DNA of 64,000 nucleotides from Verrucomicrobiales bacterium (GTDB lineage Bacteria > Verrucomicrobiota > Verrucomicrobiia > Verrucomicrobiales > V1-33): the NCBI GenBank assembly GCA_046155625.1, contig JBJXFS010000024.1:14898-78897 (forward strand). The letters run 5' to 3'. Positions 20,718 to 40,296 of this stretch are shown here, one piece after another. A program made the position numbers and the translations under genes. The number at the start of each line of letters is the position of its first letter. Within the stretch, counting starts at the first letter, position 1. The notes under the pieces were generated by a model, which saw only the letters and a program-made list of their open reading frames with translations, ran no database searches and was not told where the DNA came from.

Positions 20718-20747
20718 GGTGTGGGACAAAATGGGATTCTTTCCAAG

Positions 20748-23131: not shown

Positions 23132-23956
23132 CTATCGATCCGAAGCGGCCAGCGCGGGGTCGGCCGACGGCGGTGTGGCCTGCGCCTGCTGCGCCGCCGG
23201 AGCCGCGGCGGGGACCGGTGTCTTCTCTTTGTAAAACGCGGCGAAATCCGCTGGCGAGACGATCTGCAACGTCGAGCGCATGATGCCGTGGCCCGGGCCG
23301 CACAACTGACCGCAGACGATATCCCATTCGCCGATCTTTTGTGGAGTGAACCAGACGTGGGCCTCGCTGCCCGGAGTCGCATCCTGGCAGAGACGCATCG
23401 GGACAAGCGCAAGATTGTGAATCACATCCTTGGACGTGATGCCGACAATCGCCGGTTCGCCCAGCGGGAGCGTCAGTGTGTTCAGCTCGACGAAATCATC
23501 CTTGGCATTTGGATCGCTCAGATCGAGCCCCACCGGATTAGTCGAGGAAATCAGCCGCGCATTGTCCGTTCTTCCGAATTTTCCGTCCGGACCACAATAA
23601 TGAAACCACCAGCGGAACTGTTCGCCCACCGCGCGCACACGCGCCACGTTGGATCCCGCCGGAAAGTCGTCGACCCGCCGGCTCCACAGGGGGTACGCAA
23701 ACCCAAGCAAGAGGACCGCCTCGGTGACGATCACGCCGATTTCGATGTGGGTCGTCGCGTGGCCGCGCAGGCCAACGTAATTGCCACGGGGGTTCTTCGA
23801 CTTGCGAAACAGGTAAATCGCCACTGCGATGTAAATCGACCATCCGGCGCCGAGGATCAGCATGAACCAGTGGACGAACTCCAGCAGCTGGTCCACCACC
23901 ACGCCGTGCTCCGACGCCAGTTCACCGATTCCCATCCATTGATTCAAAATGCCCAT
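23132..23956 (-). CDS. coxB: Cytochrome c oxidase subunit II (CuA), no fused cytochrome c
   Basis: Two TM helices, GEQFRW, DVIHN, CGQLCGPGHGIM. Confidence 0.95.
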   Translation of the reverse strand: MGILNQWMGIGELASEHGVVVDQLLEFVHWFMLILGAGWSIYIAVAIYLFRKSKNPRGNYVGLRGHATTHIEIGVIVTEAVLLLGFAYPLWSRRVDDFPAGSNVARVRAVGEQFRWWFHYCGPDGKFGRTDNARLISSTNPVGLDLSDPNAKDDFVELNTLTLPLGEPAIVGITSKDVIHNLALVPMRLCQDATPGSEAHVWFTPQKIGEWDIVCGQLCGPGHGIMRSTLQIVSPADFAAFYKEKTPVPAAAPAAQQAQATPPSADPALAASDR

Positions 23957-24460: not shown

Positions 24461-24826
24461 TCAGTAGTCAAACTTGTGATGGATCGGGTCGAAATGGTGG
24501 AGCACGATCAGGAACATCATCGCGGCAAAAAAGATCACCGTGAAGAGCAGGAATTTGTAGATCGTGCTCCGCTCGTGATTCAAGTGCATGAAAATGAGCG
24601 CGACACAGGCCGCCTTGAACGTGGCGATGAGCAGGCCCACGGCCAGATTCCAGGCGTGGCCGCCGAAGTCGACGTAAGACACGGCCACCGTCGCGACCGT
24701 GCCGGCAGCCAGCACGAGGAGGACGAGGAGGTACTTTTTGAAGCTGGCGCGCATTTCCTGCACAACGGCGGGATCCGGTGTGTGCAGGTCGGCGGCGGGT
24801 TTCGCGGTGTCGTGTGAATGATCCAT
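24461..24826 (-). CDS. Cytochrome c oxidase subunit IV family protein
   Basis: Three TM helices, IATFKA..V.LIFMHL. Confidence 0.9.
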   Translation of the reverse strand: MDHSHDTAKPAADLHTPDPAVVQEMRASFKKYLLVLLVLAAGTVATVAVSYVDFGGHAWNLAVGLLIATFKAACVALIFMHLNHERSTIYKFLLFTVIFFAAMMFLIVLHHFDPIHHKFDY

Positions 24827-26172: not shown

Positions 26173-28080
26173 TTAATGATGCGCCGTGGCCACCGGGGCG
26201 ATCACCGGTTCGGGCTGGCCCGGGGATTTTTCCCATTGCGGCGTGAAGTCCTTGTCCGCCCCTGGCAGGCTGTATTCGTACGGGCCGCGGTAGGCGACCG
26301 GCTCGGTGGTGAAATTGCCGTGGGGTGGCGGCGTCGGCGTGTTCCATTCCATGGTGGTCGCCTGCCATGGGTTGTCCGAGGTGATCTTGCGGCCGGCCAT
26401 CATACTCCAGAAGAAATTGATGATGAATGGAATCTGCGCAATAGCCATGATGAACGCGCCCCAAGTCATGACATCGTTCAGGTGGAGGTAGCTGTTTTTC
26501 CCGAAGATCCACCAGAGTTGTTCGGGGAGCATATCATTGGCGATTTCCGGGTACGACTGGCCACCGTCGTAGGCGCGGCGATGGAATCCGCGCATCCCTT
26601 GGACCATCATGGGGGCGAAGACGACGTTCATGCAGATCAGGGTGGGCCAGAAGTGCAGGTGGCCGAGGAAATTGTTCATCATGCGGCCGGTCATTTTCGG
26701 GAACCAGTGGTAGATGCCGGCGAAGAGGCCGAAGAGGACGCCCGGGGCGACCACGTAGTGGAAGTGGCCGATGACGTAATAGGTGTCGTGCAGATGGAGG
26801 TCGACGAGGGCGAAGGCGAGTGGCAGACCGGTCAATCCCCCGATGCCGAACATCGGCAAGAACGCGGTGGCGAAGAGCATCGGAATGGTGAAGCGGATCG
26901 ATCCGCCCCACAGCGAGATCATCAGGCAGGTGAGCAGGATGACCGACGGGATGGAGATGAGAACCGTGGTCGTCTGGAAGAACGTCGTGATCACGCTGCC
27001 CATGCCGGTCATGTACATGTGGTGCGCCCACACGATGAACGAGAGGAAGCCGAGAACGAGCACCGCGTAGACCATGCTCTTGTACCCCCAAAGCGGATTG
27101 CGCGTGTTCGCCGGGATGACTTCAGCGACGACCGCGATGGCCGGCAGCAGGATGACGTAGACCTCGGGATGCCCGAGGAACCAAAAGAGATGCTGATAGA
27201 GCAGCGGACTGCCGCCGCCCGACACGTTCCAGAGCTGGCCGTTGACCACCATGCCGGTCGGCATGAAGAAGCTCGACCCAAAGAGACGATCGCTGAGCTG
27301 CATGAGGGCGGCGACTTCCAACGGCGGAAAGGCGAGGAGAAGGAGGAAGCCAGTGACCAACATGGCCCACACGAAAAATGGCATCCGCATCCAGGTCAGG
27401 CCGCGGGCGCGCAGGTTGATGATGGTCGCGAGGAAATTGACCGCGCCCAGAAGCGACGACGTGATCAGCATGGCCATGCCGACGAGCCACTGCGACTGGC
27501 CGTTCCAATAGATCCAGGGCTCGGAGGCATGGGTGACGCCGGCCAGTGGGGAATAATTTGTCCAGCCTGACTGGGCGGCGCCTGAAGGCAGGAAGAAGCT
27601 GACCAGCATGAGCACGCCGCCGACGAAAAAGCACCAGTAACTGGCCATATTGAGCCGGGGGAACGCCATATCGACGGCGCCGATTTGCAGCGGGGTGACG
27701 TAGTTTCCAAAGGCGGCGAACCCGAGCGGCACGACACCAAGAAAGACCATGATCGTGCCGTGCATGGCGCCGAACATGTTGTACAGCTCGCCGGTCACGG
27801 CGCCTTGGTTCAACCAGCGATCAGCCCCCCCGCCGCCCAGGAGATCGATGAATGGAAGCATCCAATCAGGGATTGGCTCGTTCGGATTCGCGATGCTCCA
27901 GCGCATGTAGAGCATGAGCATGAATCCGAAGAGGAGAAACAAGAGGGCCGACATCCCGTACTGGATGCCGATCCACTTGTGATCGGTGGAGAAGACGTAT
28001 TTCGACCAGAACGACTGTTCATGGTGGTCATGCCCATGACCGTGGTCATGGGAGTCGTGGGCGTGAGCGGCGGCAGACAT
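26173..28080 (-). CDS. coxA: Cytochrome c oxidase subunit I, A family (GHPEVY)
   Basis: TDHK, MHGT, GHPEVY, WAHHM, GHFHY, HRRAY; all six His ligands present. Confidence 0.97.
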   Translation of the reverse strand: MSAAAHAHDSHDHGHGHDHHEQSFWSKYVFSTDHKWIGIQYGMSALLFLLFGFMLMLYMRWSIANPNEPIPDWMLPFIDLLGGGGADRWLNQGAVTGELYNMFGAMHGTIMVFLGVVPLGFAAFGNYVTPLQIGAVDMAFPRLNMASYWCFFVGGVLMLVSFFLPSGAAQSGWTNYSPLAGVTHASEPWIYWNGQSQWLVGMAMLITSSLLGAVNFLATIINLRARGLTWMRMPFFVWAMLVTGFLLLLAFPPLEVAALMQLSDRLFGSSFFMPTGMVVNGQLWNVSGGGSPLLYQHLFWFLGHPEVYVILLPAIAVVAEVIPANTRNPLWGYKSMVYAVLVLGFLSFIVWAHHMYMTGMGSVITTFFQTTTVLISIPSVILLTCLMISLWGGSIRFTIPMLFATAFLPMFGIGGLTGLPLAFALVDLHLHDTYYVIGHFHYVVAPGVLFGLFAGIYHWFPKMTGRMMNNFLGHLHFWPTLICMNVVFAPMMVQGMRGFHRRAYDGGQSYPEIANDMLPEQLWWIFGKNSYLHLNDVMTWGAFIMAIAQIPFIINFFWSMMAGRKITSDNPWQATTMEWNTPTPPPHGNFTTEPVAYRGPYEYSLPGADKDFTPQWEKSPGQPEPVIAPVATAHH

Positions 28081-28127
28081 GGGGAAAAGGCGGTTCGGGT
28101 GAAATTACTCTCGGATGACAGACGCGT

Positions 28128-28919
28128 CTACTGCGGCGCGGCGGCGGTGGGGGCGGTGGGGGCGGGGGCGGGCGGAGTGGTCGCGGCGGCGGCCGCCGGG
28201 GCGGGAGCGGCCGAGGGAGCACCACCCTCGAGCATTTTGTCCTCGGGGATGGTTTTGAGTTCGCCCTCCGTGTACATGGTCGTTCGTCCCTTGGTGCGGC
28301 TGAGGAAGGTGGCAGCCTGTTCGATGGAGACTTCCGTGCCGGTATTCCCCCACCCTTGCCGGATGAAGCTGAGCACCCCGGCGAATTCCTTGGGTGTCAA
28401 AATGGGTGGCGCATGCGCGGGCATGATCGCCGCTCCATACTGTTGGCCCTTGACGGTGAGCGGGCCCATCAGGCCGTAGGCGACCAGCGACGCCAGACGT
28501 TCGGTGCTGCCGAGCACCCATTCGGAGCCGACGAGCGGCGGGTAAAGGCCGGGCTGGCCTTGGCCGTCGGCCTGGTGGCACGCCACGCAGCCCTTGCCCT
28601 TGTACACCTTTTCTCCGATGGCGTACAGGCTCTGATCCGTCCCCCCGGATTCGGGCACGAGCGGATCCGGAACTCGCGGTTGGTATGACGCGCCGAATTT
28701 ATTGTAGTTCATCCCGTCGTCCAGTCCGCTGCCGCGGTGGGCGCCGAAGAACGTGAATCCGAGCGCGGTCACAGCGATGGCGCCGAGGGCGACCCACAGC
28801 GAAACCGGCCGGCTTTCGGCGACGCGGTCCGGATGTTCACGGGCCAAGGCGTTATGGACGCGGGCCACGTTGAGCGTGGACCGATAATCGATGTTCTGGG
28901 ACTGTGATTCGGAGCTCAT
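28128..28919 (-). CDS. Membrane-anchored monoheme cytochrome c
   Basis: CVACHQADGQG, YPPLVGSEWV, IMPA, IRQGWGN; resembles the caa3 cytochrome c domain. Confidence 0.92.
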   Translation of the reverse strand: MSSESQSQNIDYRSTLNVARVHNALAREHPDRVAESRPVSLWVALGAIAVTALGFTFFGAHRGSGLDDGMNYNKFGASYQPRVPDPLVPESGGTDQSLYAIGEKVYKGKGCVACHQADGQGQPGLYPPLVGSEWVLGSTERLASLVAYGLMGPLTVKGQQYGAAIMPAHAPPILTPKEFAGVLSFIRQGWGNTGTEVSIEQAATFLSRTKGRTTMYTEGELKTIPEDKMLEGGAPSAAPAPAAAAATTPPAPAPTAPTAAAPQ

Positions 28920-29701
28920 TTCGCGGTCGAAGCAGGGGCAGGGGCAGGAGCTGGAGCTGGGGCGGCAGCACCGGCAGCGGGAGCCGGGGCGGGGGCCGCG
29001 GCAGCGGGAGCCGGCGCAGCTGGCGGTGGTTTGGTTCCGCCGAGCGAGACTGGGAGCGGGCTGTTGCGGCGGAGGGCGAGGAGGTAATCGGCGAGATCGA
29101 CGGCCTCCGTGGAAGGTACGATTTCAAACCCCTCCGCGGGTGCCAGTTTTCCCTCGGTAAAGACCGCCCATTTCGACCGCTGGCCGAGGATGGGGCGGGT
29201 GTCAAAGAGGTGGCGCTGGGGCGGGCAGGACGTCCAGTCGTAACGGGCCTGGGGCGAGTAGAGGTGCTCCAAAACTTGAAGCCTCGACTGAAACCGGTAA
29301 CTGGCGTTGGCCAGATCGGGCCCGATGCGGCGCTCGCCGATGGCGGCGAATGACTCACCCAGGTAGTCGTAGGGCGATGTCTGACGCGTGCGCTTGGGAG
29401 CCAGGGCGTTCTGCGCCTCGCCCCAATTGCGTTTGAATTCGTCCCCGTCGCCACCCACGTACTGGGCACGTATGACCTGGGTATGGCACTGGGCACAGCC
29501 CTGGTTGAAGAATACTTGCTGCCCACGCGCCTGGTGGGCGGCACGGGAAGGCGGGAAGAAGCCGGTCATTTCGTCGCCGGCCTCGGCGTCGTAGGCGACG
29601 GGAGCCAGGTTGGCGAGGTGGCCATACGGGCGCGCGATCAGGAACAGCCAGGGGGCGCCGAACGTGACGATCAATCCAAGGATGAGTGAATTCAGGGACA
29701 T
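28916..29701 (-). CDS. cbb3-type subunit II (CcoO/FixO)-like cytochrome c
   Basis: GCAQCHTQVIR, GERRIGPDLAN, HLYSP. Confidence 0.85.
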   Translation of the reverse strand: MSLNSLILGLIVTFGAPWLFLIARPYGHLANLAPVAYDAEAGDEMTGFFPPSRAAHQARGQQVFFNQGCAQCHTQVIRAQYVGGDGDEFKRNWGEAQNALAPKRTRQTSPYDYLGESFAAIGERRIGPDLANASYRFQSRLQVLEHLYSPQARYDWTSCPPQRHLFDTRPILGQRSKWAVFTEGKLAPAEGFEIVPSTEAVDLADYLLALRRNSPLPVSLGGTKPPPAAPAPAAAAPAPAPAAGAAAPAPAPAPAPASTAK

Positions 29702-29707
29702 GGTCAA

Positions 29708-31201
29708 TTAGGCCTCCGCTCCTTCGGTGGTGATGACGACCTGGGCGTGGTCGTAATGGGCCGGACCGCTCAGCAGGGTGGCGCGCTCGCTGCGGCGGCC
29801 CAACCGCAGGGCGATGAGCACGAAGTGGAAGAAGAACACGGTATTGGCGAAGAGGATAAATGCCCAACCGAGCGTGGCCGCCATGTAGGCGCCGCTGAGC
29901 ATGTCGGACAGGGCGCCAAACCCATTGCTCCAGACATTGAGGGCGTTGGCCTGGAAGAAACCGCCGATGATGAGGAAGACGCCGATGGGCGAACCGCCGT
30001 AGACATTGGCCCAGAAATGGATCCGGATCATCTGGGGCGAGAGCCATTCGCAGCCGGTCAGGCGCGGAAGGATGAAGTAAATCGCCCCGAACATGGTCAT
30101 CGAAAAATAACTGTAGACGAGCATGAAGCGCAACCCGTCCCAAGCTGCGGTATACTGGCTGAGGCTGGGAGCGAGCGCAAAAAAGGCTGCCACCACATGA
30201 CTGGCCACGTAGAACACGGCGCCCGCAAAGACGAACCGCAGCGTCGGGCTGACTTGCACGAGCCCGTGCTGGCCGCGGGTCGTCAAAAAGTGATTGGCCG
30301 CCACGCAGATCACCGGAATCAGAAGCATGACTTGCGCCGCGCTGCTCACGGCCGGCATCCAGGTCGGCAGCGGGCCACCGATCAGCTTTTGCAGCCCGGT
30401 CCACCCGCCGAAAAGCGCCAGCGACCAGAACCCGGCGACCGCGAGGTGGTAGCTGTGCAACGGCCGGCCGACGATTTTGGGAATCAGGTAATAGGCCGTG
30501 CCCACCGCCATCGGGACGAGGAACAGGAAGAGCACGCCATTGCCATACCAGGACGCGGTCAGAGCGGCGTGCAGTCCGGACGGCGTCTGGGGAGACGCGA
30601 ACAGGTTGACCGTCAGGAAAAGCCAGGCGAACCAAAACGTCGCCCCCAGCACGTACCACTGGGTCACGTAATCCGCCCCCTTCGGCCGGGTGGCAAACAT
30701 CATGACCGGCCACACCACGATCAGCACGAAGGCCGCGAAGAGCATCAGCCATGCGGACCGGCCAAATTCAAGCAATTCGCCCGGCGATTGGGCGCCCAGC
30801 AAGATGTTTCCCACGCCGATCAGGACGCCGAGATTCCAGAAATGCCCGGCCACCACCACCGTCACCGGATTGCGCAGCGGCTGACGGCACAGGCGCGCCA
30901 TCAGCCAGAGTCCGACGGCCATCGCCGCCTGAAAACACCAGCCGTACACCAGTGAGTTGTAGGCGGCCGGTTGCAGGCGCCCCCAGTTCAGCCAGTTCAG
31001 ACAGTTGAAATCCAGAAACCCCGGGGTGTGAAGTTTGAACGAGGCGAACAACCCGAGCAGGCACGACACCAGGAGCCAGACCAACCCGCTGGTCAGCAGA
31101 AAGAGAACCGGCATCTTCGTCGAACGATCGAGCTCGGCGCGTTCGCGCACGTCCTCGGGCGTCGGCCGCTCGATCGGGGCGGTGGATGAATCTTGGGACA
31201 T
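29708..31201 (-). CDS. cbb3-type subunit I (CcoN)-like membrane protein lacking metal-ligand histidines
   Basis: Scaffold motifs WGRL, YYLIPK..GRPLHSY.L...GFWSL, GP.P.W, FGAIYFILPRL, IHFW; His motifs substituted. Confidence 0.85.
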   Translation of the reverse strand: MSQDSSTAPIERPTPEDVRERAELDRSTKMPVLFLLTSGLVWLLVSCLLGLFASFKLHTPGFLDFNCLNWLNWGRLQPAAYNSLVYGWCFQAAMAVGLWLMARLCRQPLRNPVTVVVAGHFWNLGVLIGVGNILLGAQSPGELLEFGRSAWLMLFAAFVLIVVWPVMMFATRPKGADYVTQWYVLGATFWFAWLFLTVNLFASPQTPSGLHAALTASWYGNGVLFLFLVPMAVGTAYYLIPKIVGRPLHSYHLAVAGFWSLALFGGWTGLQKLIGGPLPTWMPAVSSAAQVMLLIPVICVAANHFLTTRGQHGLVQVSPTLRFVFAGAVFYVASHVVAAFFALAPSLSQYTAAWDGLRFMLVYSYFSMTMFGAIYFILPRLTGCEWLSPQMIRIHFWANVYGGSPIGVFLIIGGFFQANALNVWSNGFGALSDMLSGAYMAATLGWAFILFANTVFFFHFVLIALRLGRRSERATLLSGPAHYDHAQVVITTEGAEA

Positions 31202-31237
31202 GGATGGTGTCGGAAGTCGGTGAGCGCCGGGCGGTGA

Positions 31238-31639
31238 TTACGGGGCAAGGAAAGCGGACTCGGTGGGGTCATGGGTCCCGGACTGCTTTTCCATGAACGT
31301 CTTGCTGCCCGGGATGAGTAATTCGGTCTTGTGAGCGGGATTCGTTTTGAGTGCGGCCAGCGCCTTCTCGATCAAGGCATCGGGAACCGTGACCCGCGTC
31401 AGGTGCCCGCCCTGCGGCCCGTGATACGTCAACCCAAAGCCGGTGACCGCCTTTTCCTCGGCCTTGCGCAGTTCGTTCAGCGTGGCCAGACGCACGGCCG
31501 CCGCGCCATCATCGAGCTCGGCGTCGGGCGCCTTGCTGGCGCGGAAGTAAAAGCCGGCGACGGCCACGAGGAGCATGACGCCGGTCGCCAGCCAAAAGGC
31601 CTTGAACCGGATCAGAGGATTTTCCAGGGATTCGTCCAT
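31238..31639 (-). CDS. Small single-TM protein downstream of actF (positionally ActG-like)
   Basis: One TM helix; overlaps the actF-proximal spacer; VTVP..LIEKA tail. Confidence 0.7.
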   Translation of the reverse strand: MDESLENPLIRFKAFWLATGVMLLVAVAGFYFRASKAPDAELDDGAAAVRLATLNELRKAEEKAVTGFGLTYHGPQGGHLTRVTVPDALIEKALAALKTNPAHKTELLIPGSKTFMEKQSGTHDPTESAFLAP

Positions 31640-31666
31640 GAAAGTGGGGTCAGGATGAGGAGTGGC

Positions 31667-33028
31667 CTAGTTGACGACGTTGATGGATTCCTGCAGGCGT
31701 GGGTCGCCGCAGGGATACAGACTGTACCGGGCGAGCGATTTGAGGAAACAGAGCGCCACCACACAACCGATGGTGATGAAGGCGGCCGCGTCGAGCAGCA
31801 CCGCCCAGACGATGGCCGGTTGGTCAGCGAGTTTCGGTCCGCGTTCGGGGATGATGAACCAATAGGCCTCGCAAATGTGGACAAAGATGATCCACAGGGC
31901 GATGGCACGAATACGTTTGAAGTTTTTCTTGGCGGCCCGCGGCAGGAGGAGGACGAACGGGATGAAGAAGTGACCGATGGTGATGAGGAACGTGCTGTAG
32001 AAGTTCCATCCATCGGTATTGCGGATGGCGTAGAACTGGGTTTCCTCGGTGATGTTGGCGTACCAGATGAGGAAATATTGGCTGAAGGCGATGTAGGCCC
32101 AGAAGATGGTGAACGCGTGCATGAGCTTGCCCATGAGATGGGTGTGCTCCGGGGTGAGGAGGCGTTTGAGATAGCCGTTTTCGTGCAAGGTGACGGCGAT
32201 CACGATGAGCAGGGCCATGGTGGCCAAGGCGGATCCGGCGAACACATTGACGCCAAACATCGTCGAGAACCACGCGTAGTTGAGCCCCTTGATCCAGTCG
32301 AAGCCGGCGAAGGTCAGGCTGACGGCGAAGAGGGGAAGAAATCCGCACGACCACTTGCGGGCCAGCAGCGTCAAGCGCACATCGCCCGTGCTGTCCTGGG
32401 AGAGGGACCAACCGCGGAGGATGAAAGCGAAGAGGCCCAGCAGGATGAAGTAGATGCCGAACCGCGGGATGAAGCCGGGCATCCAGTTGTGCCACCAGAC
32501 GCTGAGGTAGGCGAGTTTGTGGTACAGCAGGTGATTGCTGTGGTGGAGCGCCTCGGGGAGGGTGGCGGCTTTGCCTCCCTCGAGCGCGACGTGGTGATCA
32601 TGCATCCACGTCCAAAGGGTTTCGCGGATGGGCGCGAAGAGGAGCGGGAGGCCGAGCAGGAAGACGGGCAGCAATTGGACGGCCAGGGTTTCGGGCAACC
32701 GGCGAATCACCACGCCCCAGCTCGAGTTGGAGGCATTGTGGAGCAGCACCCAGAACAACCCGCCCAGCGCAAACGTGAAGAACACGTAGAACGCAAAAAG
32801 CCAGGAGTAGCTGAAGACGTCGCGCAGCGAATAGCTGATCGGCTCGCCGGTGACAAAGTCCGTGCTGCCAATCTTGATGGCACCGCCGGCCAGGAAGATC
32901 ACGGCGGATGCGAGCAACCCGATCACCGCCCCCAGTCGAAGCAGCGATATAAACTTCCCGAACTTGGAAAGATCGAGCTTTTCGCCGCCAGCGGGCAGGG
33001 TGGAAATTGAAACAAAATGATGGCTCAT
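31667..33028 (-). CDS. actF: Alternative complex III subunit F
   Basis: WGVVIRRLPE, DWIKGL...WFSTMFG, FWAYIAFSQYFLIWYANITEET. Confidence 0.93.
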   Translation of the reverse strand: MSHHFVSISTLPAGGEKLDLSKFGKFISLLRLGAVIGLLASAVIFLAGGAIKIGSTDFVTGEPISYSLRDVFSYSWLFAFYVFFTFALGGLFWVLLHNASNSSWGVVIRRLPETLAVQLLPVFLLGLPLLFAPIRETLWTWMHDHHVALEGGKAATLPEALHHSNHLLYHKLAYLSVWWHNWMPGFIPRFGIYFILLGLFAFILRGWSLSQDSTGDVRLTLLARKWSCGFLPLFAVSLTFAGFDWIKGLNYAWFSTMFGVNVFAGSALATMALLIVIAVTLHENGYLKRLLTPEHTHLMGKLMHAFTIFWAYIAFSQYFLIWYANITEETQFYAIRNTDGWNFYSTFLITIGHFFIPFVLLLPRAAKKNFKRIRAIALWIIFVHICEAYWFIIPERGPKLADQPAIVWAVLLDAAAFITIGCVVALCFLKSLARYSLYPCGDPRLQESINVVN

Positions 33029-33037
33029 GTCGGCGGG

Positions 33038-33805
33038 TTACTTCTTGTCCTCGGCGGCGGGGGCAGGCGGGGTGGTGGCCGCGGGTCCGGCGGCGGGCGC
33101 TGGTGCAACGGCGGGGGGGGTGGGAGGCGTCGCAGCGGCGGTGGCGCTGGCGGTCGCGGCTTTGGCGACGTGCAGAGTGCGGATGTACGCGATGATGGCC
33201 CAGCGATCAGCGACCGGGATCATGGCGCCGTAGGGTCCCATCTGCCCTTTGCCGTAAGTGATGGTGGCAAAGATGTTGCCGTCGCTGCGGTAGGTGGGGT
33301 CCTTTTTGTCGGTAAATGGCGGCAGGTGGAAATTCCCGGTGGCCATGGGAACACCGTACTTCGACGTGATGCCGTCCCCGGCGCCAGTGTGTCCATGACA
33401 CACGGCGCAATAAATCCCGTAGCGTTCGGCCCCGCGGCGAATAAGCGCCGGATCCAGAGTCACTTCAGCGGGCATGCCGTCGCCCCAATAGTCGCCGAAG
33501 CGGCCGGTGTGGAAGTAATCGGTACCGACGGAAAAGCTGAGGCCGCCGGCGCCAGGCGCTGCCGTCGACGATTGAGTGGCGACGGCCAAGCCCATGGGCA
33601 CGGTGCCGGCCACCGGCTTTTGCGCGCCTTTTCCGTTGGCGAAGAACGTGCTTTCGGCTTGGAACTTGACCTTGGCCTGATCGTCCATGTCGGGGAAGAC
33701 GTAGAGCGGCGGCTTGGTCGTGGTATCGCCACGGAAGCCGGCCCACCCGACCACCAGCAGGACGAGCAGCAGGACACTGAGAAAGAAGGATCGAAGAACG
33801 GGCAT
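33038..33805 (-). CDS. actE: Alternative complex III monoheme cytochrome c subunit E
   Basis: FPDMDDQAK, YCAVCHG, G.G.MGPY, DRWAIIAYIRTL. Confidence 0.92.
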   Translation of the reverse strand: MPVLRSFFLSVLLLVLLVVGWAGFRGDTTTKPPLYVFPDMDDQAKVKFQAESTFFANGKGAQKPVAGTVPMGLAVATQSSTAAPGAGGLSFSVGTDYFHTGRFGDYWGDGMPAEVTLDPALIRRGAERYGIYCAVCHGHTGAGDGITSKYGVPMATGNFHLPPFTDKKDPTYRSDGNIFATITYGKGQMGPYGAMIPVADRWAIIAYIRTLHVAKAATASATAAATPPTPPAVAPAPAAGPAATTPPAPAAEDKK

Positions 33806-33853: not shown

Positions 33854-34414
33854 TCAGGCGAGTTCGTCCTCGATCAACTCGATGTTGCGGCCGCCGATTT
33901 CCTCGAGGAAGGCGCGGGTCTTTTCGGGGTGAAACTGGGGGTCCTTCTGCTCGATGCAGATGAAAAAGCCATCGTCGGTGGCGCGCTTGAAATTTTCCGA
34001 ATTGAAGAGCGGATGGTGAAGGCGCGGGAGTTTGTTCAGCGCGATGCACCCACAGATCGAGGTCAGCGCCGAGAGAAGAACGGTGAGCTCGAAGGTGACC
34101 GGGAAATACGCCGGAATCGTGAAGAGGTTCGTCGGTTTCCCCTGGACGACGGTCGGATAGAGGCCGACTTGAGTGCCGAATTGGAGAAGGACGGCGGTCA
34201 AGGCGCCGGTGCAACCGCCAATGAGGACAAAGAGCGAGAGGATTGACTTTTTGACGCCCATGGCGTCGTCCATCCCGTGAATGGGAAAGGGTGAATGGGT
34301 GTCCCAGAACCGGAAGCCGGCGTCCCGGCACTTTTCGGCGGCATGGAATAAATCGGCCACGCTGCCGAATTCGGCGAGGTAACCGTGGGTGCGTTTGAGC
34401 GGAGCGTCGGCCAT
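33854..34414 (-). CDS. actD: Alternative complex III subunit D (DUF3341)
   Basis: LAEF, HSPFPIHGMDDAMG, GKP, PVTFELTVL; start at MADAPLKR. Confidence 0.92.
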   Translation of the reverse strand: MADAPLKRTHGYLAEFGSVADLFHAAEKCRDAGFRFWDTHSPFPIHGMDDAMGVKKSILSLFVLIGGCTGALTAVLLQFGTQVGLYPTVVQGKPTNLFTIPAYFPVTFELTVLLSALTSICGCIALNKLPRLHHPLFNSENFKRATDDGFFICIEQKDPQFHPEKTRAFLEEIGGRNIELIEDELA

Positions 34415-34421
34415 GGCGGGA

Positions 34422-35939
34422 TCAGGCGGCAATCGGATGGGTCGGGGAGGAGGCGGGCGCGGGTTCGTGGCCGGCGGGCCGCGGCTCGCCCCGCACTTCC
34501 TGTTCGGTGATGGCGCGCGGGTCGCGGCCCCGGCCATGCGGATCGGATTGGGGCAGGACGCCCTTGACTTCGGCGATCGCGATGACCGGCAGGAAGCGGA
34601 CAAAGAGGAGGAAGTTCATCAGGAAGAACCCGAAGCTCCCGGCGAAGGTCCAGATGTCGACCCAGGTCGGATGGAACATGTCCCAAGCGCCCGGCACGAA
34701 GTCGCGGGCGAGCGTGGTGACGATGATGACGAATCGTTCGAACCACATGCCGGCGTTGACGAAGTTGCAGACCAGAAAAACCACGAACCAGTTCTGGCGC
34801 ATGCTCTTGAACCAGAAGATCTGCGGTGACACCACGTTGCAGAACATCATGGCCACATAGGCCCAGACGTAAGGACCGTCCTTGATCCGGAGCATGAACG
34901 CGTCGAGCTCAAATTTGTTGCCGCCGTACCACGCGATGAAGAGTTCACTCAGGTAGGCGTAGCCGACGATCGTTCCGGTGAGCAGGATGATCTTCGCCAT
35001 GTTGTCAATGTGCTTCCACGTGAGCAGGTCCTGGAGTCCGTAGATCTCGCGGACCGGAAGCATGAGCGTGAGCACCATCGCGAATCCGCCGAAGATGGCG
35101 CCGGCGACAAAGTAGGGCGGACAGATGGTGGCGTGCCAGCCGGGGACGATCGAAGTGGCGAAGTCGAATGACACGATGGTGTGAACCGAAAGCACGAGCG
35201 GGGTCGAGAGGGCGGCCAGAATGAGGTAGGCCATCTCGTAGTGGTTCCACTGGCGGTTGCCGCCGCGCCACCCGAGGGCGAAGAGGCCGTAGAAGGCTTT
35301 TTTAATTCCCGGTTTGCAGCGATCGCGCAGGGTGGCGAGGTCGGGGATGAGTCCGAGGTACCAGAAGAGCACGGAGACCGTGAAGTAGGTAGAGACGGCA
35401 AAGACGTCCCAGAGCAGGGGCGACTTGAAGTTTTGCCAGATGGCATTGCTGTTCGGGACGGGCGCGAGAAACCACGCCATCCACACGCGGCCGACGTGGA
35501 GTGCCGGATAGAGACCGGCGCACATGACGGCGAAGATGGTCATGGCTTCGGCAGCGCGGGCCACCGAGGTGCGCCATCGCTGGCGAGTGAGGAAAAGAAT
35601 GGCTGAGATGAGGGTGCCCGCGTGACCGATACCGATCCAGAAGACGAAGTTCGTGATGTCCCAGCCCCAGGCGACCGGGTGATTCTGTCCCCAGACGCCG
35701 ACGCCGGTGGCGATGAGGTACCCGAAGAGGTAGACCATCGTGAGGAACAGGAGGACGGCCGGGATAAAAATCGCCCACCAGATTTTCGGCTGCGGTTTCT
35801 CGACGATGCCGCAGATGCGATCGGTGATCCAGGAGTACGACCGGTTGTGCAGGACCAGCGGTTCCCGCAGCAGAACCTGAGCCGGCGAACCGGATCCGTA
35901 GAGCGGCGGGTGGGATTCCTCGTGGTGAGTGGCGGCCAT
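34422..35939 (-). CDS. actC: Alternative complex III quinol-binding subunit C (NrfD family)
   Basis: [46 protein letters not shown]. Confidence 0.96.
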
Positions 35940-35981: not shown

Positions 35982-38900
35982 TTACATGTGCGCGGACGCC
36001 TGGCCGACTTTGCGTTTTTCGATTGGGCTGGCCGCGAGCAGCGCGGGATTGGGATTTTTGATGCGGGCGAGGTAGCTGGTGCGCGGCCTGGCACCGATGT
36101 AGCGGAGCGTGGAGTAGGCGCGCGGGTGGGCGGGGACGCCGTGCTCTTCGCCGACGATGTCCGTGTTTCCACGGAGTTTGGAAACCGAGCTGGCGTTGTC
36201 GCGCAGGTTGCCGAAGACGATGGCATCGGCCGGGCAAGCCGCCTGGCACGCGGTTATCACCTTGTCGGTCGGAGTGCGCAGTTCCTCGTCGGTCAGCGTC
36301 AGGTTTTCATCGGCGATGCCGGTGGCCGTGGCCTTGCGGCGGGCCATGGTCTTTTGGTCGATCTTGGCGGCCTGAATACGCTGGATGCAGTATGTGCATT
36401 TCTCAATGACGCCGCGCATGCGGACAGTGACGTTGGGATTGCGCTGGAGGCGCAGACTCGCGTCGTCCTTCAACTCACCGAAGGGCCCGAGGTAATAGTT
36501 GTTCGAGTGAAGGCCGAGGATCGAATCTTCGCGTTTGATGTCGGCGCGTTTGTTGTAGTCGAAATAATTGAATCGGCGGGCTTTCCACGGGCAGTTGTTG
36601 GCGCAGTACCGGGTGCCGATGCACCGGTTGTAGACCATGAGGTTGAGGCCGTCCTCACTATGGATGGTGGCATTCACCGGGCAGACGGTTTCGCAGGGAG
36701 CGGCCTCGCAATGCTGACAGGCGACCGGTTGGACGAGCATCTCGGGGTCATCGAGCTCGCGAACCGGAGGGGCATGGCCATGACCGGCATTCTCATCGGC
36801 GCCGCCCGCCACCGGGCCGGCGGTGGTGGTACTTTCCCATTCTTTGCGCGGGGGCAATTTGCCACCCTCGACATCGACGGCGAAGTACCGGTCCATGCGG
36901 ATCCAGTTCATGTCGCGGCCGATGATGACCTGACGTTTGCCGACGGTCGGGATGTTGTTTTCCGACTGGCAGGCGAGCGAGCAGCTGTTGCACCCGATGC
37001 AGGCGTTGAGGTCGATGACCATGCCCCACTGGTGCTGGGTATCCCAGAGGTGAGGGGTGGTGGCGAAGAGGCCGCCGGTATTGCCGAACTGGCCTTGGCG
37101 ACCCTGATTTTTGTAGAAGGTGAAATCCGGAGGGATATGGCTGTCCATCCCCTCGGTGGTGGCAAAGCTGGGATCGTCCTTGAACCGATCGGCGGTGCCT
37201 TCACGAATGAGCTCGCGCCCGTACATCGTGTGGTGTTCCTGGGTGGTCGCCAGTGGGACCGTGTCGCCGGTCACGGTGACTTTGGCGCCCGCCAGCCAAT
37301 AGGTGGAGGAGCTGTCGCGCAGTGGATAGGCGTTGACGCCAGTCCCCTCGCCCACGCGCCCGGGACCGGCGGCTCCCTTGCCCTCCTGGCCGTAGCCGAG
37401 GGCCAAGGTGATCGCGTTGTCAGCGTGGCCCGGCGCCATGACGACCGGCACGACAAGGGAACGGCCGGCGACCTCGATGGTGATCGTTTGGGCCTTGTCG
37501 CGGAGGTATTTGTCCAGGCCGAGGGCCGAGGCGGTGCGCACGCTGACGAGGGCGGCGTTATCCCAGGTGACCTTGGAAATGCTGTCGGGCATTTCCTGCA
37601 GCCAGGCATTATTAATGTATCGGCCGTCCCAGAGTTTTCCGTCAGGAACCAGGGTGAGTTCAAAGGCCTCCTGGCTCGGGGGCGCGATGTCTTTGTAGCC
37701 GGCAAGCAGCGCGGTCACGGCGGAGCCCTGCGGCGCCCCGGTGAAGGCGGGCCATGAGGTGCCGGCGAGCAATCCATCGCGCAAGGCGGTGCTCCAGGCC
37801 GTTTCCATGTCGCCCTGGGCCAGACCGGCGAATGTTTCCCGGACGGCAAGGTAACCGGGATCTTTTGATTCCTCGGGTGGCAAGCCGTTGATGGGCGCGG
37901 CGGGCGGGGGCGGCTCGACCTTGACCGCGACGGGCGTGTCGCTCGCGAGCAGAGTCAGGAATTCAAGATCCGAAACCCCGCCGAAAAGCGGCAGGATCAT
38001 CGGCTGAACGATCGAATAAACCCCGCTCAGTGCGCGGACGTCACCCCACTGCTCCAAATAATGCGTGCCGGGCACCGACCATGTGGCGGCCCGGGCCGTG
38101 GCAGTCCGGTCGCGAAATCCGACGTGGATGACGGTGGGAATGGACTTTTGCAGCGCGGCCCAATTCAGCGAGGCGGGCGCGTCGTAGCACGGGTCCGCGG
38201 TGGAAACGATGGCCAAGGTGGTCACGACCTTGGAGGCGACGGCTTCGGCCAATTCTCCCAGCGTGCCGGCGGGGAGCGACTGGGTCTGCTTGAGCTCGAT
38301 CGGTGGGACCGGCTTTCCGGGAGCTGGGGCGAAAGCGCCGAGGGCCGTGTTGATGGCGGCGACGAGGGCGTGCACTTCGGCCGGTTGCTGCGGACCGGCC
38401 AGGACCATGGCGCGTCCACCCTTGCTGGCCGCGAGATCTTTCGCGGTCTCGGTGATAAAAGTATCGGCGTCCTCGCGCGGCTGAAAATCACCCACCAGCG
38501 ACACACGGGCCGCCGCAGCCTCCAGCGCGGTGTCTCCGGTCGCCTTGGCCAGCGCCTTGGCCAGCGCAACCGCCGTTTTCATGATCTGGCTGGCGTGGAC
38601 ACGCAGGCGATGGTCCGCCATGCCGCCGGTCAGCGTGTACTGGCTTTCAAAAACGTACAGGCGGTTCATCGGGTCGCCCGGCTTCATCGCCCGACGTCCG
38701 CTCATGAAACGCGACACACTGCTCGCCTTCGGCCGGTGCAGGTCGAGGAAATCACAGTCGAGCGACACTATTTTGTCGCACACGCTGAAATGCGGAACCT
38801 GGACAACGCCGGGACCAAACACCTTGGCCGTCGCGGTGCGCGCGCCGTCAAAGTCCAGCGCCTCATACCGATAGACCTTCGCCTGCGGAAACATCGCCGT

Positions 38901-39530
38901 GACCTTGGCCAACAGTCGATCGCGCGTCGGCGAGACCACCGCGTCGACCAGCAGGGCCAGCCCCTTCCCGCCTTCCGCGGTCAGCGACGCCTTGTGGGCA
39001 TCAAGGAATCCGAGAAATTCATCCCGCGTCGACCGCTTGCCCTGGTGCTTGAAATCGCGCGCCCGGTCCGGGTCGTACAAATCGAGCACCGAGGCTTGGG
39101 CAAATCCATCCACGGAGCCATTGCTCTCAGGATGCAGGCTGTTGCCCTGAATGTGCGTCGGCCGCCCTTCATACGTCGTCACCACCACCGGCGTGCACCC
39201 GCCAGCCCGCGGCATCGCCGAGGCGTAAAACAACGCTTTGCCCGGAATCACCCACTCGACGTTCTTCGAGTACGGCAAGATCCGCGCCTCCGGCCGCCGA
39301 CACGCCGCCAGCCCAAAGCCGGCCATCGTCGTCGCCGCCCCCATCAGCTTCATGAAATCGCGCCGCGACTGACCCGCGTCCGCCTCGTCGGCCATCATCG
39401 CCGCACCTTGCGGAAACTCCCGCGCTATCCAGTCCCGAAACTCGGGCGTGTCGTCCAACTCCCCCAGGCTCCGGAAGTACTTCCGGTTGCTGGGTTTCTC
39501 GGCGGGGTGGTCCCAAACGCGTTTGCTCAT
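35982..39530 (-). CDS. actB: Alternative complex III subunit B (molybdopterin-oxidoreductase-like + Fe-S domain)
   Basis: Tat motif SRRDFMKLMG; NNAWLQEMPD; Fe-S motifs CIGCNSCSLAC, CQHCEAAPCETVC, CIGTRYCANNCP, CTYC...CQAACP. Confidence 0.96.
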   Translation of the reverse strand: MSKRVWDHPAEKPSNRKYFRSLGELDDTPEFRDWIAREFPQGAAMMADEADAGQSRRDFMKLMGAATTMAGFGLAACRRPEARILPYSKNVEWVIPGKALFYASAMPRAGGCTPVVVTTYEGRPTHIQGNSLHPESNGSVDGFAQASVLDLYDPDRARDFKHQGKRSTRDEFLGFLDAHKASLTAEGGKGLALLVDAVVSPTRDRLLAKVTAMFPQAKVYRYEALDFDGARTATAKVFGPGVVQVPHFSVCDKIVSLDCDFLDLHRPKASSVSRFMSGRRAMKPGDPMNRLYVFESQYTLTGGMADHRLRVHASQIMKTAVALAKALAKATGDTALEAAAARVSLVGDFQPREDADTFITETAKDLAASKGGRAMVLAGPQQPAEVHALVAAINTALGAFAPAPGKPVPPIELKQTQSLPAGTLGELAEAVASKVVTTLAIVSTADPCYDAPASLNWAALQKSIPTVIHVGFRDRTATARAATWSVPGTHYLEQWGDVRALSGVYSIVQPMILPLFGGVSDLEFLTLLASDTPVAVKVEPPPPAAPINGLPPEESKDPGYLAVRETFAGLAQGDMETAWSTALRDGLLAGTSWPAFTGAPQGSAVTALLAGYKDIAPPSQEAFELTLVPDGKLWDGRYINNAWLQEMPDSISKVTWDNAALVSVRTASALGLDKYLRDKAQTITIEVAGRSLVVPVVMAPGHADNAITLALGYGQEGKGAAGPGRVGEGTGVNAYPLRDSSSTYWLAGAKVTVTGDTVPLATTQEHHTMYGRELIREGTADRFKDDPSFATTEGMDSHIPPDFTFYKNQGRQGQFGNTGGLFATTPHLWDTQHQWGMVIDLNACIGCNSCSLACQSENNIPTVGKRQVIIGRDMNWIRMDRYFAVDVEGGKLPPRKEWESTTTAGPVAGGADENAGHGHAPPVRELDDPEMLVQPVACQHCEAAPCETVCPVNATIHSEDGLNLMVYNRCIGTRYCANNCPWKARRFNYFDYNKRADIKREDSILGLHSNNYYLGPFGELKDDASLRLQRNPNVTVRMRGVIEKCTYCIQRIQAAKIDQKTMARRKATATGIADENLTLTDEELRTPTDKVITACQAACPADAIVFGNLRDNASSVSKLRGNTDIVGEEHGVPAHPRAYSTLRYIGARPRTSYLARIKNPNPALLAASPIEKRKVGQASAHM

Positions 39531-39593: not shown

Positions 39594-40244
39594 TCAACGG
39601 TGGCAGGCGCCACACGACTCGGGCGGATGAATGTTCCAAGCCTTCTTCAGCTTCTGGCCCAGCGCCAGGCGATCGACTCCCTCCGGCTTCCACCCGAGGT
39701 TCGTCACCTGGTCCAGCGGCCGCAACTTCTCCCCAGGCGACCGATGACAGTCCAGACACCAGCTCATCGACAGCGGTTGGTCGTGCCGCACCACCGTCAT
39801 CTCGTCCACCCGTCCGTGACACTCGACACACGACACCCCGCGGTTCACGTGCACCGAATGATTGAAATACGCATAGTCCGGCACCTTGTGCACCTTCACC
39901 CACGGAATCGCCTCCCCCGTCTCCATGCTCTCCACCACCTTCGCCAAATTCGGACTGTCCTTCTTCACATGCTGGTGACAGTTCCAGCACGTTTGCGTCG
40001 CCGGTATGTTCGCATGCCCCGATTCCTCCACAAAACTGTGACAATACCGACAGTCCATCCCCAATTGCCCCGCATGAATCTTATGACTGAACGGCACCGG
40101 CTGGCTCGGCGTATACCCCACCCGCGTGTACTTCGGCGTCAGATAATACGTCACCCCAATCGTCACCAACCCGCCGATCGTGAGCACCCCCACAATCACC
40201 CACAGCGGCAACAAGTTGCTCCATCGAGGAAAAAAATTAGCCAT
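39594..40244 (-). CDS. actA: Alternative complex III pentaheme cytochrome c subunit A
   Basis: Five CxxCH motifs (CRYCH, CWNCH, CVECH, CLDCH, CGACH), QPVPFSHKIHAG, N-terminal TM. Confidence 0.96.
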   Translation of the reverse strand: MANFFPRWSNLLPLWVIVGVLTIGGLVTIGVTYYLTPKYTRVGYTPSQPVPFSHKIHAGQLGMDCRYCHSFVEESGHANIPATQTCWNCHQHVKKDSPNLAKVVESMETGEAIPWVKVHKVPDYAYFNHSVHVNRGVSCVECHGRVDEMTVVRHDQPLSMSWCLDCHRSPGEKLRPLDQVTNLGWKPEGVDRLALGQKLKKAWNIHPPESCGACHR

Positions 40245-40296
40245 ATCAGAAAAAATCCCCACCAACCGTCAGCACTCCCGCGGTCGATGGGCGAGT

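Follow-up and report, generated by a model that had tools for sequence, protein, structure and literature searches.

The gene at the centre of this study, here called psN, encodes a homolog of the cbb3 oxidase subunit CcoN in which all six metal-binding histidines have been replaced, and which has nonetheless been kept under purifying selection inside an operon for alternative complex III (ACIII). Very probably, psN is a selected non-oxidase; we further lean, if only slightly, towards considering it a non-catalytic remnant that is retained because it holds c-type cytochromes, as a scaffold, at ACIII. The gene was studied in the window, i.e. the whole stretch of 64,000 nucleotides of Verrucomicrobiales DNA that was analysed, together with its CcoO-like neighbour, psO, and the other genes listed in Table 1.

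Table 1. Genes of the ACIII operon and its neighbourhood, with their positions in the window
Feature	Position	Strand	Basis
SCO1/SenC copper chaperone	19980..20729	-	Pfam SCO1-SenC 65.6 bits
Heme O synthase-like protein (UbiA family), 580 aa	20748..22490	-	Pfam UbiA 151.6 bits
CoxB, subunit II, CuA motif, without heme c domain	23132..23956	-	Pfam COX2 37.5 bits
caa3-type subunit IV	24461..24826	-	NCBIfam TIGR02229 42 bits vs 37
CtaE-like subunit III, 423 aa	24856..26127	-	Pfam COX3 54 bits, two stretches
CtaD, A-family oxidase subunit I	26173..28080	-	Pfam COX1 431 bits
TM-anchored monoheme cytochrome c (CVACH), weakly CcoP-like, 263 aa	28128..28919	-	Pfam, NCBIfam
psO, CcoO-like monoheme cytochrome c, N-terminal TM helix, CAQCH	28916..29701	-	Pfam, profile, complex model
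psN, ligand-less CcoN homolog, 497 aa	29708..31201	-	Pfam COX1, NCBIfam ccoN, 3mk7_A alignment, AF2, Foldseek, dN/dS
orf133, single-TM, no known family, between actF and psN	31238..31639	-	
ActF-like ACIII membrane subunit, 453 aa	31667..33028	-	place after ActE, tblastn synteny 19/20 loci
ActE-like monoheme cytochrome c	33038..33805	-	Pfam Cytochrome_CBB3 46.5 bits; synteny
ActD	33854..34603	-	Pfam ActD 198.5 bits
ActC, NrfD-type quinol-binding membrane subunit	34422..35939	-	Pfam NrfD 77 bits
ActB, 1182 aa, molybdopterin-like and Fe-S domains, TAT signal	35982..39530	-	
ActA multiheme cytochrome c	39594..40265	-	Pfam Cytochrome_C7 49 bits, Cytochrom_c3_2 34.6 bits

The psN protein and its lost ligands

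The frame of psN is free of stops over its whole length, and its translation contains the four altered motifs GRLQPAAYN (residue 74), WYGNG (218), WTGLQKL (267) and AWDGLRF (353), as an earlier note on this DNA had described. Residues 39-486 were aligned by phmmer with residues 21-470 of Pseudomonas stutzeri CcoN (3mk7_A, E 6.8e-25), and the four motifs pair there, in the same order, with GRLRPLHTN, WYGHN, WAGPHHL and WTIGHVH. The low-spin heme b ligands His60 and His347 correspond to Ala80 and Phe359 of psN, the heme b3 ligand His345 to Leu357, and the CuB ligands His207, His257 and His258 to Asn221, Gln271 and Lys272; furthermore, Tyr251 of the His-Tyr cross-link, absent from the list of losses in the earlier note, is replaced by Gly265. 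The loss is not peculiar to the protein of the window, because the same columns are nearly devoid of His and Tyr in 120 psN homologs (44-100% identity): neither His207, His347 nor Tyr251 is retained in any of them, and His is found at the position of His345 in one homolog, of His257 in two, of His258 in six and of His60 in 12.

Judged by this alignment, canonical binding of heme b, heme b3 or CuB is not possible in psN, as had been proposed from the motifs, and, though called an oxidase in databases, it is probably not one. It scores 104 bits with Pfam COX1 (cut-off 34.8) and only 115.9 bits with the NCBIfam ccoN equivalog TIGR00780, the cut-off of which is 583.15; public sources, where they name psN-type proteins, use cbb3 subunit I, the very annotation that had been expected to be wrong.

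The body of the protein seems to have survived. The AlphaFold model of psN has a pLDDT of 92.1 and a pTM of 0.92, and CcoN chains are its top Foldseek matches (TM 0.83-0.90, rmsd 2.5 Å); we are therefore confident that the modelled protein retains the 12-TM fold of heme-copper oxidase subunit I, in agreement with the intact structural motifs of the earlier note. CcoN of P. stutzeri (3MK7, 5DJQ) and P. aeruginosa (8SMR) thus shares with psN end-to-end homology and the 12-helix fold, and differs from it in possessing the six His ligands and the cross-link Tyr, while psN stays below the ccoN equivalog cut-off and, unlike canonical CcoN, is encoded inside an ACIII operon.

The ACIII locus and the cytochrome partners

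The order ActA, B, C, E, F, psN, psO and cytochrome c was found by tblastn in 19 of 20 sampled loci, the exception being interrupted by a contig end; act genes, psN, psO and cytochrome c follow one another, on the same strand, also in L058, L061, L062 and the window itself. The junctions are tight: only 6 nt separate the TAA stop of psN from the ATG of psO (the listed psO frame opens at a TTG, 29707), so the CcoO-like partner does adjoin psN as noted before, and the start of the cytochrome c gene overlaps the psO stop by 4 nt (ATGA). One CxxCH each is encoded by psO and the cytochrome c gene in all 20 loci, regardless of the status of CcoN. The cytochrome c scored 41.7 bits with Pfam Cytochrom_C and 25.6 with Cytochrome_CBB3, and 24 against 180 with NCBIfam ccoP; it should be added that CcoP has two hemes as compared with one in this third subunit.

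As for the remaining genes, ActB matched NCBIfam TIGR04519 (53 bits vs 20.6) and 4Fe-4S domains, and ActC is 57-72% identical across loci. The listed ORF of actD overlaps actC, and its true start is probably further downstream. The 31667..33028 product had no Pfam match, and the name ActF would follow from its place. Between it and psN, orf133 gave no Pfam or NCBIfam match and, in the Atlas, only unnamed clusters at 0.84-0.86, below 0.9; it is 72-77% identical in L055-L057, with dN/dS of 0.09-0.13. On the other side of the trio, CtaD has intact ligand motifs (HG..., GHPEVY, WAHHMY and HFHYV, alignment to 6pw0_A), and the CoxB translation contains CGQLCGPGHGIM. Only 6 of the 20 loci, however, have a ctaD gene after the trio; of the two neighbours named in the earlier note, ACIII is the conserved partner (19/20) and the A-family oxidase is not. 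A true CcoNO fusion is encoded in the genome (1133 bits vs a cut-off of 1080; 619.8 on TIGR00780).

PsO itself is recognised by Pfam FixO at 31 bits vs 29.6 and by NCBIfam ccoO at 31 vs 200, and its profile found solved CcoO chains at E 1e-23. In the alignment its Cys159 takes the position of the axial Met, the S-x-M-P motif reading TSCPPQ; the aligned residue is Met137 in CcoO of P. aeruginosa, and presumably the equivalent heme ligand in P. stutzeri is Met136. All 19 psO homologs with 55% identity or more have Cys here instead, as do L056 and all three genomes of the sister family f2. The Met is kept in all 18 loci with intact CcoN, as well as in other ligand-less lineages (f3 4/4, f10 2/2 and a methanotroph-like copy). 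In the lineage of the window the psO heme is probably His/Cys-ligated, as far as the alignment indicates, and a CcoO-like partner with CxxCH and an invariant Cys in place of the axial Met would be new here.

The complex of psN and psO was predicted with an ipSAE of 0.85, the best control reaching 0.00; of 80 solved complexes 58 attain that mark, and of 110 mismatched pairs 2 do. The prediction runs had at least 91% of contacts in common, and the partner had a pLDDT of at least 75. The predicted interface resembles the solved N-O one, and the cbb3 enzymes have the same N-O-cytochrome c gene trio; since solved cbb3 complexes exist, the pass may reflect mere likeness to those. Residues of psN in contact with psO had been expected to be its conserved part, which the entropy test ruled out: across 47 ligand-less genes they differed little from the rest (1.76 vs 1.98, p 0.053), and in the clade of the window they were less conserved (1.55 vs 1.26, p 0.009). 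In that clade it is the cytoplasmic half, the side away from the cytochromes, that is more conserved (1.06 vs 1.57, p 1e-9); as a general rule for ligand-less CcoN this was rejected, the bias being absent elsewhere.

Selection and repeated loss of the ligands

Full-length comparison of psN with close orthologs gave dN/dS of 0.076 and 0.077, and a comparison of 221 codons gave 0.093, with ActF at 0.09-0.14 and psO at 0.10-0.13 in the same loci. These values bear out the purifying selection that had been anticipated despite the loss of the histidines, and the close orthologs lack these too, contrary to the possibility, raised in the earlier note, of a relaxed copy among orthologs that keep them. 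Over 18 pairs of ligand-less CcoN the ratio ranged from 0.058 to 0.405, and its median of 0.16 is approximately three times that of intact relatives (0.054), therefore part of the ligand-less protein is relaxed; all measured pairs had a ratio far below 1. Furthermore, identity is 95% or higher in 95 columns of the 120 psN homologs, and 43 of the 128 positions near-invariant in intact relatives, ligand-flanking residues included, are degenerate in the ligand-less genes.

The class was represented by 94 further genomes with 95 ACIII-linked ccoN genes, of which 49 have all ligands and 46 do not; methanotroph-like genomes also carry ligand-less CcoN. The intact orthologs from sister Verrucomicrobiota are 38-42% identical to psN and have the same actABCDEF-N-O-cytochrome c order, and are distinguished from it by the ligand pattern HHYHHHH, by C-x-Y-C-H and the axial Met and by lower dN/dS. 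On a genome-only IQ-TREE phylogeny at least three to four events of ligand loss are needed, and a single loss was rejected (p-AU 0.011); an earlier FastTree of 188 mixed sequences had suggested six to eight changes, and the genome-only tree was preferred because of long branches. As read from these genes, psN belongs to an ACIII-linked cbb3 oxidase that has degenerated repeatedly, and not to a separate family of old standing, since such distant orthologs keep all ligands (49/95).

In an informal look at match counts, ligand loss showed no clear relation to whether the genome has a second, true cbb3. A tie to an adjacent A-type oxidase was considered and dismissed: intact L039 and L040 have one, as do ligand-less copies, and many other ligand-less copies are without it.

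What psN may do, and what follows from it

In our best explanation, psN would derive from an ACIII-linked cbb3 oxidase and be catalytically dead, with the 12-helix body of CcoN and without heme b, heme b3 and CuB, and would therefore not reduce O2. Together with psO and the membrane-anchored cytochrome c it may form a non-catalytic module co-expressed with ACIII, in which the most likely job of psN would be that of a membrane scaffold holding c-type cytochromes at ACIII; in this genome the cytochromes would sit between ACIII and the next-encoded aa3-type oxidase, whose subunit II has CuA and no heme c. For this, psN would still have to bind psO, and the trio would have to be attached to ACIII, as gene order would suggest, and to relay electrons. 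The relay is the weakest step, because the psO heme in this lineage is probably His/Cys-ligated, and the potential expected of a His/Cys heme c lies several hundred mV below what quinol-to-oxidase transfer would need (PMC9562282). Also weighed against a scaffold or relay were the conservation of the psO contacts, the cytoplasmic-half bias, the rarity of CtaD after the trio and the raised dN/dS, and we hold the chances that this is the job of psN to be about even. The scaffold role proposed by the earlier note thus survives as the best reading, an inferred one. For psN as a non-oxidase we also counted redundancy, the genome having both the CcoNO fusion and an intact A-type CtaD.

Several other readings were weighed. 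The axial Cys could instead signal a new activity, with psN and psO forming, around a His/Cys heme, a periplasmic site that is connected to ACIII and senses redox state or handles sulfur compounds. The distribution of the Cys and the selection on psO described above speak for it, and Cys/His c-hemes serve as active sites in sulfur-oxidising cytochromes (PMC9562282, PMC4423706). We nevertheless consider it unlikely, as the Cys ligation is read from an alignment, no sulfur-metabolism gene lies beside the operon among the ORFs scanned, and the f3, f10 and methanotroph-like copies keep the Met, therefore the general retention of psN would be left unexplained. TsdA, SoxA and DsrJ, which are c-type cytochromes with His/Cys ligation, are comparable to psO in that the alignment puts a Cys of psO at the distal axial site of its CxxCH heme; they differ in their unrelated fold, psO being of the CcoO type, and in that no sulfur-enzyme context was found near psO. 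A module rebuilt in this lineage, in which such a low-potential heme would rest on an ACIII-attached 12-helix body devoid of cofactors and make a new site on a quinol oxidase, appears rather doubtful.

That psN is still redox-active, with heme or metal bound through alternative ligands, has little to recommend it. Candidates do exist among the residues conserved in the clade, namely the non-canonical His120 (96% of 120), His304 (97%) and His459 (97%), His395, which is present in canonical CcoN too, and Met101, Met370 and Met463; judged by the AF2 helices and the predicted psO contacts, however, these histidines lie at cytoplasmic helix ends and the seven canonical positions in the periplasmic half, His304 is ancestral (100% in intact relatives), no substitute residue is common to independent ligand-less clades, and the surroundings of the old sites are degenerate. 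Barely more credible is psN as a conduit for protons or ions that is coupled to the turnover of ACIII; in its favour one may cite the 12-helix body, the many conserved intramembrane Trp, Tyr, Arg and Lys (e.g. Tyr237, Lys242 and Arg380) and the strongly conserved cytoplasmic half. Ser240, His243 and Glu323 of P. stutzeri CcoN, which we take to be the K-channel residues, align to Ala254, Gly257 and Val337 of psN, there is no redox centre in psN to drive pumping, and the cytoplasmic bias is clade-specific; the ion conduit of the earlier note accordingly found no support. As for a neutral relic, a slowly decaying pseudogene read through by chance, the dN/dS above that of intact relatives and an internal TGA in one ligand-less copy (G366:C168) would fit it, and it is yet extremely improbable in view of 120 open, full-length homologs, ratios far below 1 everywhere, the 95 conserved columns and the confident AF2 model.

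The retained scaffold has partial counterparts. The core proteins of the bc1 complex derive from processing peptidases, inactive homologs having been kept as structural subunits; like psN, they have lost catalytic residues and kept the fold, and they have kept their place in the complex as well, as psN would have done. We know of no heme-copper oxidase subunit I that serves as an inactive structural subunit. An ACIII-aa3 supercomplex has been reported from Flavobacterium johnsoniae (Sun et al. 2018, cited by PMC8498564). It is similar in having an A-type oxidase after the ACIII genes and in requiring no soluble carrier for electrons; unlike it, the window has a dead CcoN and two cytochromes c between the genes of ACIII and of the A-type oxidase. 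To our knowledge, no cbb3-derived module has been described for that supercomplex. No paper describing ligand-less CcoN was found in the literature searched, which covered few subscription papers, and the search, PMC3404531 included, yielded no expression data for the genes of the psN module; nor was any RNA sequencing run listed for positions 28100-33100 of the window. Papers on methanotroph-like genomes list a cbb3-type oxidase beside ACIII (PMC8498564, PMC6688271, PMC10205796 and PMC11102522).

Genome and metagenome surveys read high-affinity, microaerobic respiration from the presence of ccoN. Of the ACIII-linked ‘ccoN’ genes studied in the class, about half (46/95), methanotroph-like copies included, appear unable to bind the metals, and oxygen physiology inferred from those genes would therefore be wrong. 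The findings also point to an ACIII-cbb3 association open to purification and structure solution, and the Met-to-Cys switch in psO offers a concrete spectroscopic handle. If true, a cofactor-less subunit I would be a rare natural test of the protein body apart from catalysis, and its repeated origin provides several independent lineages for comparison. The repeated independent death of the CcoN core may suggest that its body has a structural role in an ACIII supercomplex, one that outlives catalysis.

A ligand-less CcoN inside the ACIII operon

Translation of the minus strand gave a 497-aa frame without internal stop for psN, the ligand-less CcoN homolog, which matched the Pfam family COX1 with 104 bits (threshold 34.8); its top NCBIfam model, ccoN, gave only 116 bits where the cut-off is 583. 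Among solved structures, phmmer matched psN exclusively to CcoN chains of cbb3 oxidases, the best of them being P. stutzeri 3mk7_A (E 6.8e-25, residues 39-486 aligned), whose motifs GRLRPLHTN, WYGHN, WAGPHHL and WTIGHVH are paired with GRLQPAAYN, WYGNG, WTGLQKL and AWDGLRF. The six metal-binding histidines therefore correspond to A80, N221, Q271, K272, L357 and F359, with G265 in place of Tyr251, the cross-link residue; the P. stutzeri ligand numbers agree with the 3mk7_A chain numbering in the alignment. The earlier note had described a pseudo-CcoN devoid of all six histidines; alignment and translation bore out the frame, the motif changes and the histidine loss, and the strand had to be corrected to minus. 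The AlphaFold2 model, built with 111 homologs, had twelve long helices (mean pLDDT 92.1, pTM 0.92), and its first seven Foldseek matches were CcoN chains (TM 0.83-0.90, rmsd 2.5-3.0 Å), followed at lower ranks by B-family and A-family oxidases and NO reductases. psN is very probably a pseudoenzyme form of the cbb3 oxidase.

All genes from ActA to SCO1 were encoded on the same strand as psN. Intergenic spacing is tight: the psN stop is separated from the ATG of psO, its CcoO-like monoheme partner, by 6 nt, and at the following junction stop and start codon share the sequence ATGA. The small frame upstream of psN is kept at 72-77% identity and with dN/dS of 0.09-0.13 in three closely related genomes and may encode an extra small subunit. 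CtaE has two separate COX3 stretches, and at several related loci tblastn matches to it were split in two pieces, so that duplication or fusion of a subunit III is possible.

Genes of the ACIII-psN-aa3 region in gene order, with one further gene of the window (last line)
Gene	Coordinates	Strand	Features
ActA		-	multiheme c
ActB		-	1182 aa
ActC		-	NrfD
ActD		-
ActE		-	cytochrome c
ActF-like protein		-	named by position alone
Single-TM ORF	31238-31639	-	133 aa; between actF and psN; no Pfam or NCBIfam family
psN	29708-31201	-	ligand-less CcoN homolog
psO		-	CcoO-like; TM helix; CAQCH
Cytochrome c		-	TM-anchored, monoheme; CVACH; weak CcoP likeness
CtaD		-	all ligand motifs kept
CtaE	24856-26127	-	subunit III homolog; 423 aa; two separate COX3 stretches
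Subunit IV		-
CoxB		-	CuA motif; no heme c
Heme O synthase		-	UbiA-type
SCO1		-	with heme O synthase at the end of the gene order
DUF7133 protein	41743-45024	+	1093 aa; cytochrome c motif; HEAT repeats; divergent from ACIII operon region

Elsewhere, the genome encodes a true CcoN-CcoO fusion, which clears both curated cut-offs (1133 vs 1080 and 620 vs 583), and a third COX1-family gene (L003 1399-3108, G000:C192; 569 aa, COX1 216 bits, CtaD only 67 bits), the product of which probably belongs to the B family or to some other divergent group of oxidases.

Selection and repeated ligand loss

A word-indexed search returned 543 proteins; the best 120 (44-100% identity, nearly all 480-525 aa) all had open frames, and the named ones were labelled cbb3 subunit I throughout. 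In these 120, no His or Tyr was present in the columns of His207, His347 and Tyr251, and His occurred once in the His345 column, twice in that of His257, six times in that of His258 and 12 times in that of His60; 95 columns were at least 95% identical. When compared with its three close genomic orthologs (identities of 91, 82 and 78%), psN had Nei-Gojobori dN/dS values of 0.076, 0.077 and 0.093, the same loci giving 0.09-0.14 for ActF, 0.10-0.13 for psO and 0.035-0.038 for CtaD. Across the family, pairwise dN/dS is a rough measure, dS exceeding 1 in many pairs, and ranged from 0.058 to 0.405 (median 0.16; 18 of 19 pairs with defined dS) among ligand-less genes versus 0.016-0.148 (median 0.054; 14 of 16 pairs) among intact ones, i.e. 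those keeping the six histidines and the cross-link Tyr. By this measure the ligand-less copies are still clearly constrained, about three times less than the intact ones. Of 128 positions that hardly vary among intact genes, 43 have degenerated in the ligand-less genes, the neighbours of every ligand among them, and 36 remain conserved there, mostly Gly, Pro, Trp and Tyr. The pattern looks like a genuine loss of the pockets for the cofactors, as opposed to an exchange of ligands.

In a phylum-wide search, 121 of 401 genomes had matches; the approximately 92 strong ones all belonged to the class of the window organism, and one genus of 28 small genomes within its order had none. Neighbourhoods of about 19 kb around 20 matches had the order ActA, B, C, E, F, psN, psO and cytochrome c in 19 loci, the 20th being interrupted by a contig end; ActD was found in 17 of the 19, and CtaD came next in six of the 20, with one more locus having a CoxB match alone, at its edge.

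The ligand columns of 95 ACIII-linked genes from 94 genomes divided almost evenly, 49 being intact (H-H-Y-H-H-H-H) and 46 not. Families f2, f3, f9, f10 and f16-18 of the class were entirely ligand-less, while f6 (22 intact, four not) and f7 (12 intact, 23 not) were mixed. An IQ-TREE phylogeny of this gene set, inferred without the trait columns, requires at least four state changes, of which well-supported branches force three, and places every ligand-less group as sister to intact genes. Constraining all 47 ligand-less rows to one clade cost 90.8 log-likelihood units and was rejected (p-AU 0.011), a test subject to long branches and to the tree having been seen before the group was named, though the trait itself defines the group. 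Because a regain of seven residues is implausible, we read these sequences as pointing to at least three to four independent losses; the family is an ACIII-linked cbb3 oxidase that has died repeatedly. Among 1.84 billion cluster representatives there were 1602 relatives at E <=1e-3, 304 of them at E <=1e-30, and 158 of 188 aligned sequences from all sources, a sample biased to the query, kept at most two of the six histidines. One genome, G366, holds two ACIII-type CcoN genes, C20:2189-3520 with all ligands and the ligand-less C168:10277-11716 with an internal TGA; the pair may have been caught in the course of duplication and decay, or may stem from a mixed assembly.

Four methanotroph-like genomes from a single genus (2.2-2.4 Mb, with 3-4 pmoA copies apiece) read S-E-S-S-H-F-V across the seven ligand positions, and a separate phmmer alignment to solved CcoN showed five of six histidines gone. 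In the two such neighbourhoods fetched, actABCDEF, psN, psO and the cytochrome c were followed by CtaD, CtaE and CoxB. In one methanotroph-like genome (L058 10500-11151, G279) the psO heme domain begins past an in-frame stop, apart from an upstream hydrophobic stretch; a split or truncation of the CcoO-like gene is possible there. Passages of PMC8498564, PMC6688271, PMC10205796 and PMC11102522 place a cbb3-type oxidase beside ACIII in verrucomicrobial methanotrophs, where it figures among three terminal oxidases, with no mention of the ligands. Ligand loss may well extend to the published "cbb3 oxidase"; since the genomes studied here cannot be equated with the published strains, the observation counts as a strong lead, short of a correction that has been demonstrated.

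Heme c partners and the retained CcoN body

At all 20 loci, whether CcoN was intact or not, psO and the cytochrome c had exactly one CxxCH each. The predicted psN-psO complex scored 0.85 (best control 0.00), a mark attained by 58 of 80 solved complexes and two of 110 mismatched pairs, with at least 91% of contacts common to the runs and partner pLDDT of at least 75. As cbb3 structures have already been solved, the score shows likeness to them and may stem from memorisation by the prediction model.

The S-x-M-P motif of CcoO holds the axial Met of heme c, by alignment Met137 in P. aeruginosa; the ligand in P. stutzeri is Met136. The window's psO has T-S-C-P there, and Cys occupies the axial position in 19/19 psO homologs of at least 55% identity, in L056 and in all three f2 genomes; Met is retained in f3 (4/4), f10 (2/2) and all 18 loci with intact CcoN, and two distant homologs have His. 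In the closest genomic ortholog, psO contains masked bases (an X run at about 4900-5050 of L055), which leaves it out of the comparison at the Cys site. Across loci L015-L034, the heme c motif of psO reads C-x-Y-C-H in 18/18 intact ACIII-linked operons, and its Tyr is gone from most ligand-less ones (e.g. CAQCH, CNQCH, CYHCH).

The sides of the helices were assigned from the AlphaFold2 model and from the loops that touch psO in the predicted complex; on this assignment, psN of the window's clade was more conserved in its cytoplasmic than in its periplasmic half (entropy 1.06 vs 1.57, p 1e-9); the halves were alike in intact genes (0.93 vs 0.97), and the bias was absent from other ligand-less clades. 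Each conserved histidine of the window's clade (120, 304, 312, 395, 459) sits at the cytoplasmic end of a helix, and the seven former ligand positions are all in the periplasmic half, which speaks against heme being ligated in another way within the former pockets. A new function built on a His/Cys heme is improbable. With its Cys, psO is a poor match for a relay and might serve some other purpose; a His/Cys c-heme would be expected to have a potential hundreds of mV under that of a relay heme (PMC9562282). The psO-contact residues of psN showed no special conservation, and together with the restriction of the cytoplasmic bias to the window's clade this weakens the view that psN exists solely to hold psO.

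Proposed role and significance

psN is unable to bind the canonical cofactors. It has retained its fold, is under selection and belongs to an ACIII operon with two heme c proteins. That it is a selected non-oxidase we regard as very probable; for its job being that of a scaffold or relay at ACIII, the chances are about even. No paper describing a ligand-less CcoN was found within the literature searched. The points added here are the almost even division of intact and ligand-less genes, the statistical test by which one single loss was rejected, the finding in methanotroph-like genomes, the replacement of Met by Cys in psO and the negative outcome on interface conservation. An ancestral ACIII-cbb3 unit would have lost O2 reduction several times, other oxidases being present, and the CcoN body would have been retained because the assembled complex depends on it, as membrane partner for psO and the cytochrome c and probably as a neighbour of ACIII. 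In the window genome, the aa3 oxidase whose genes follow would require a cytochrome c donor, its subunit II being CuA-only, and the anchored cytochrome c would be the obvious candidate.
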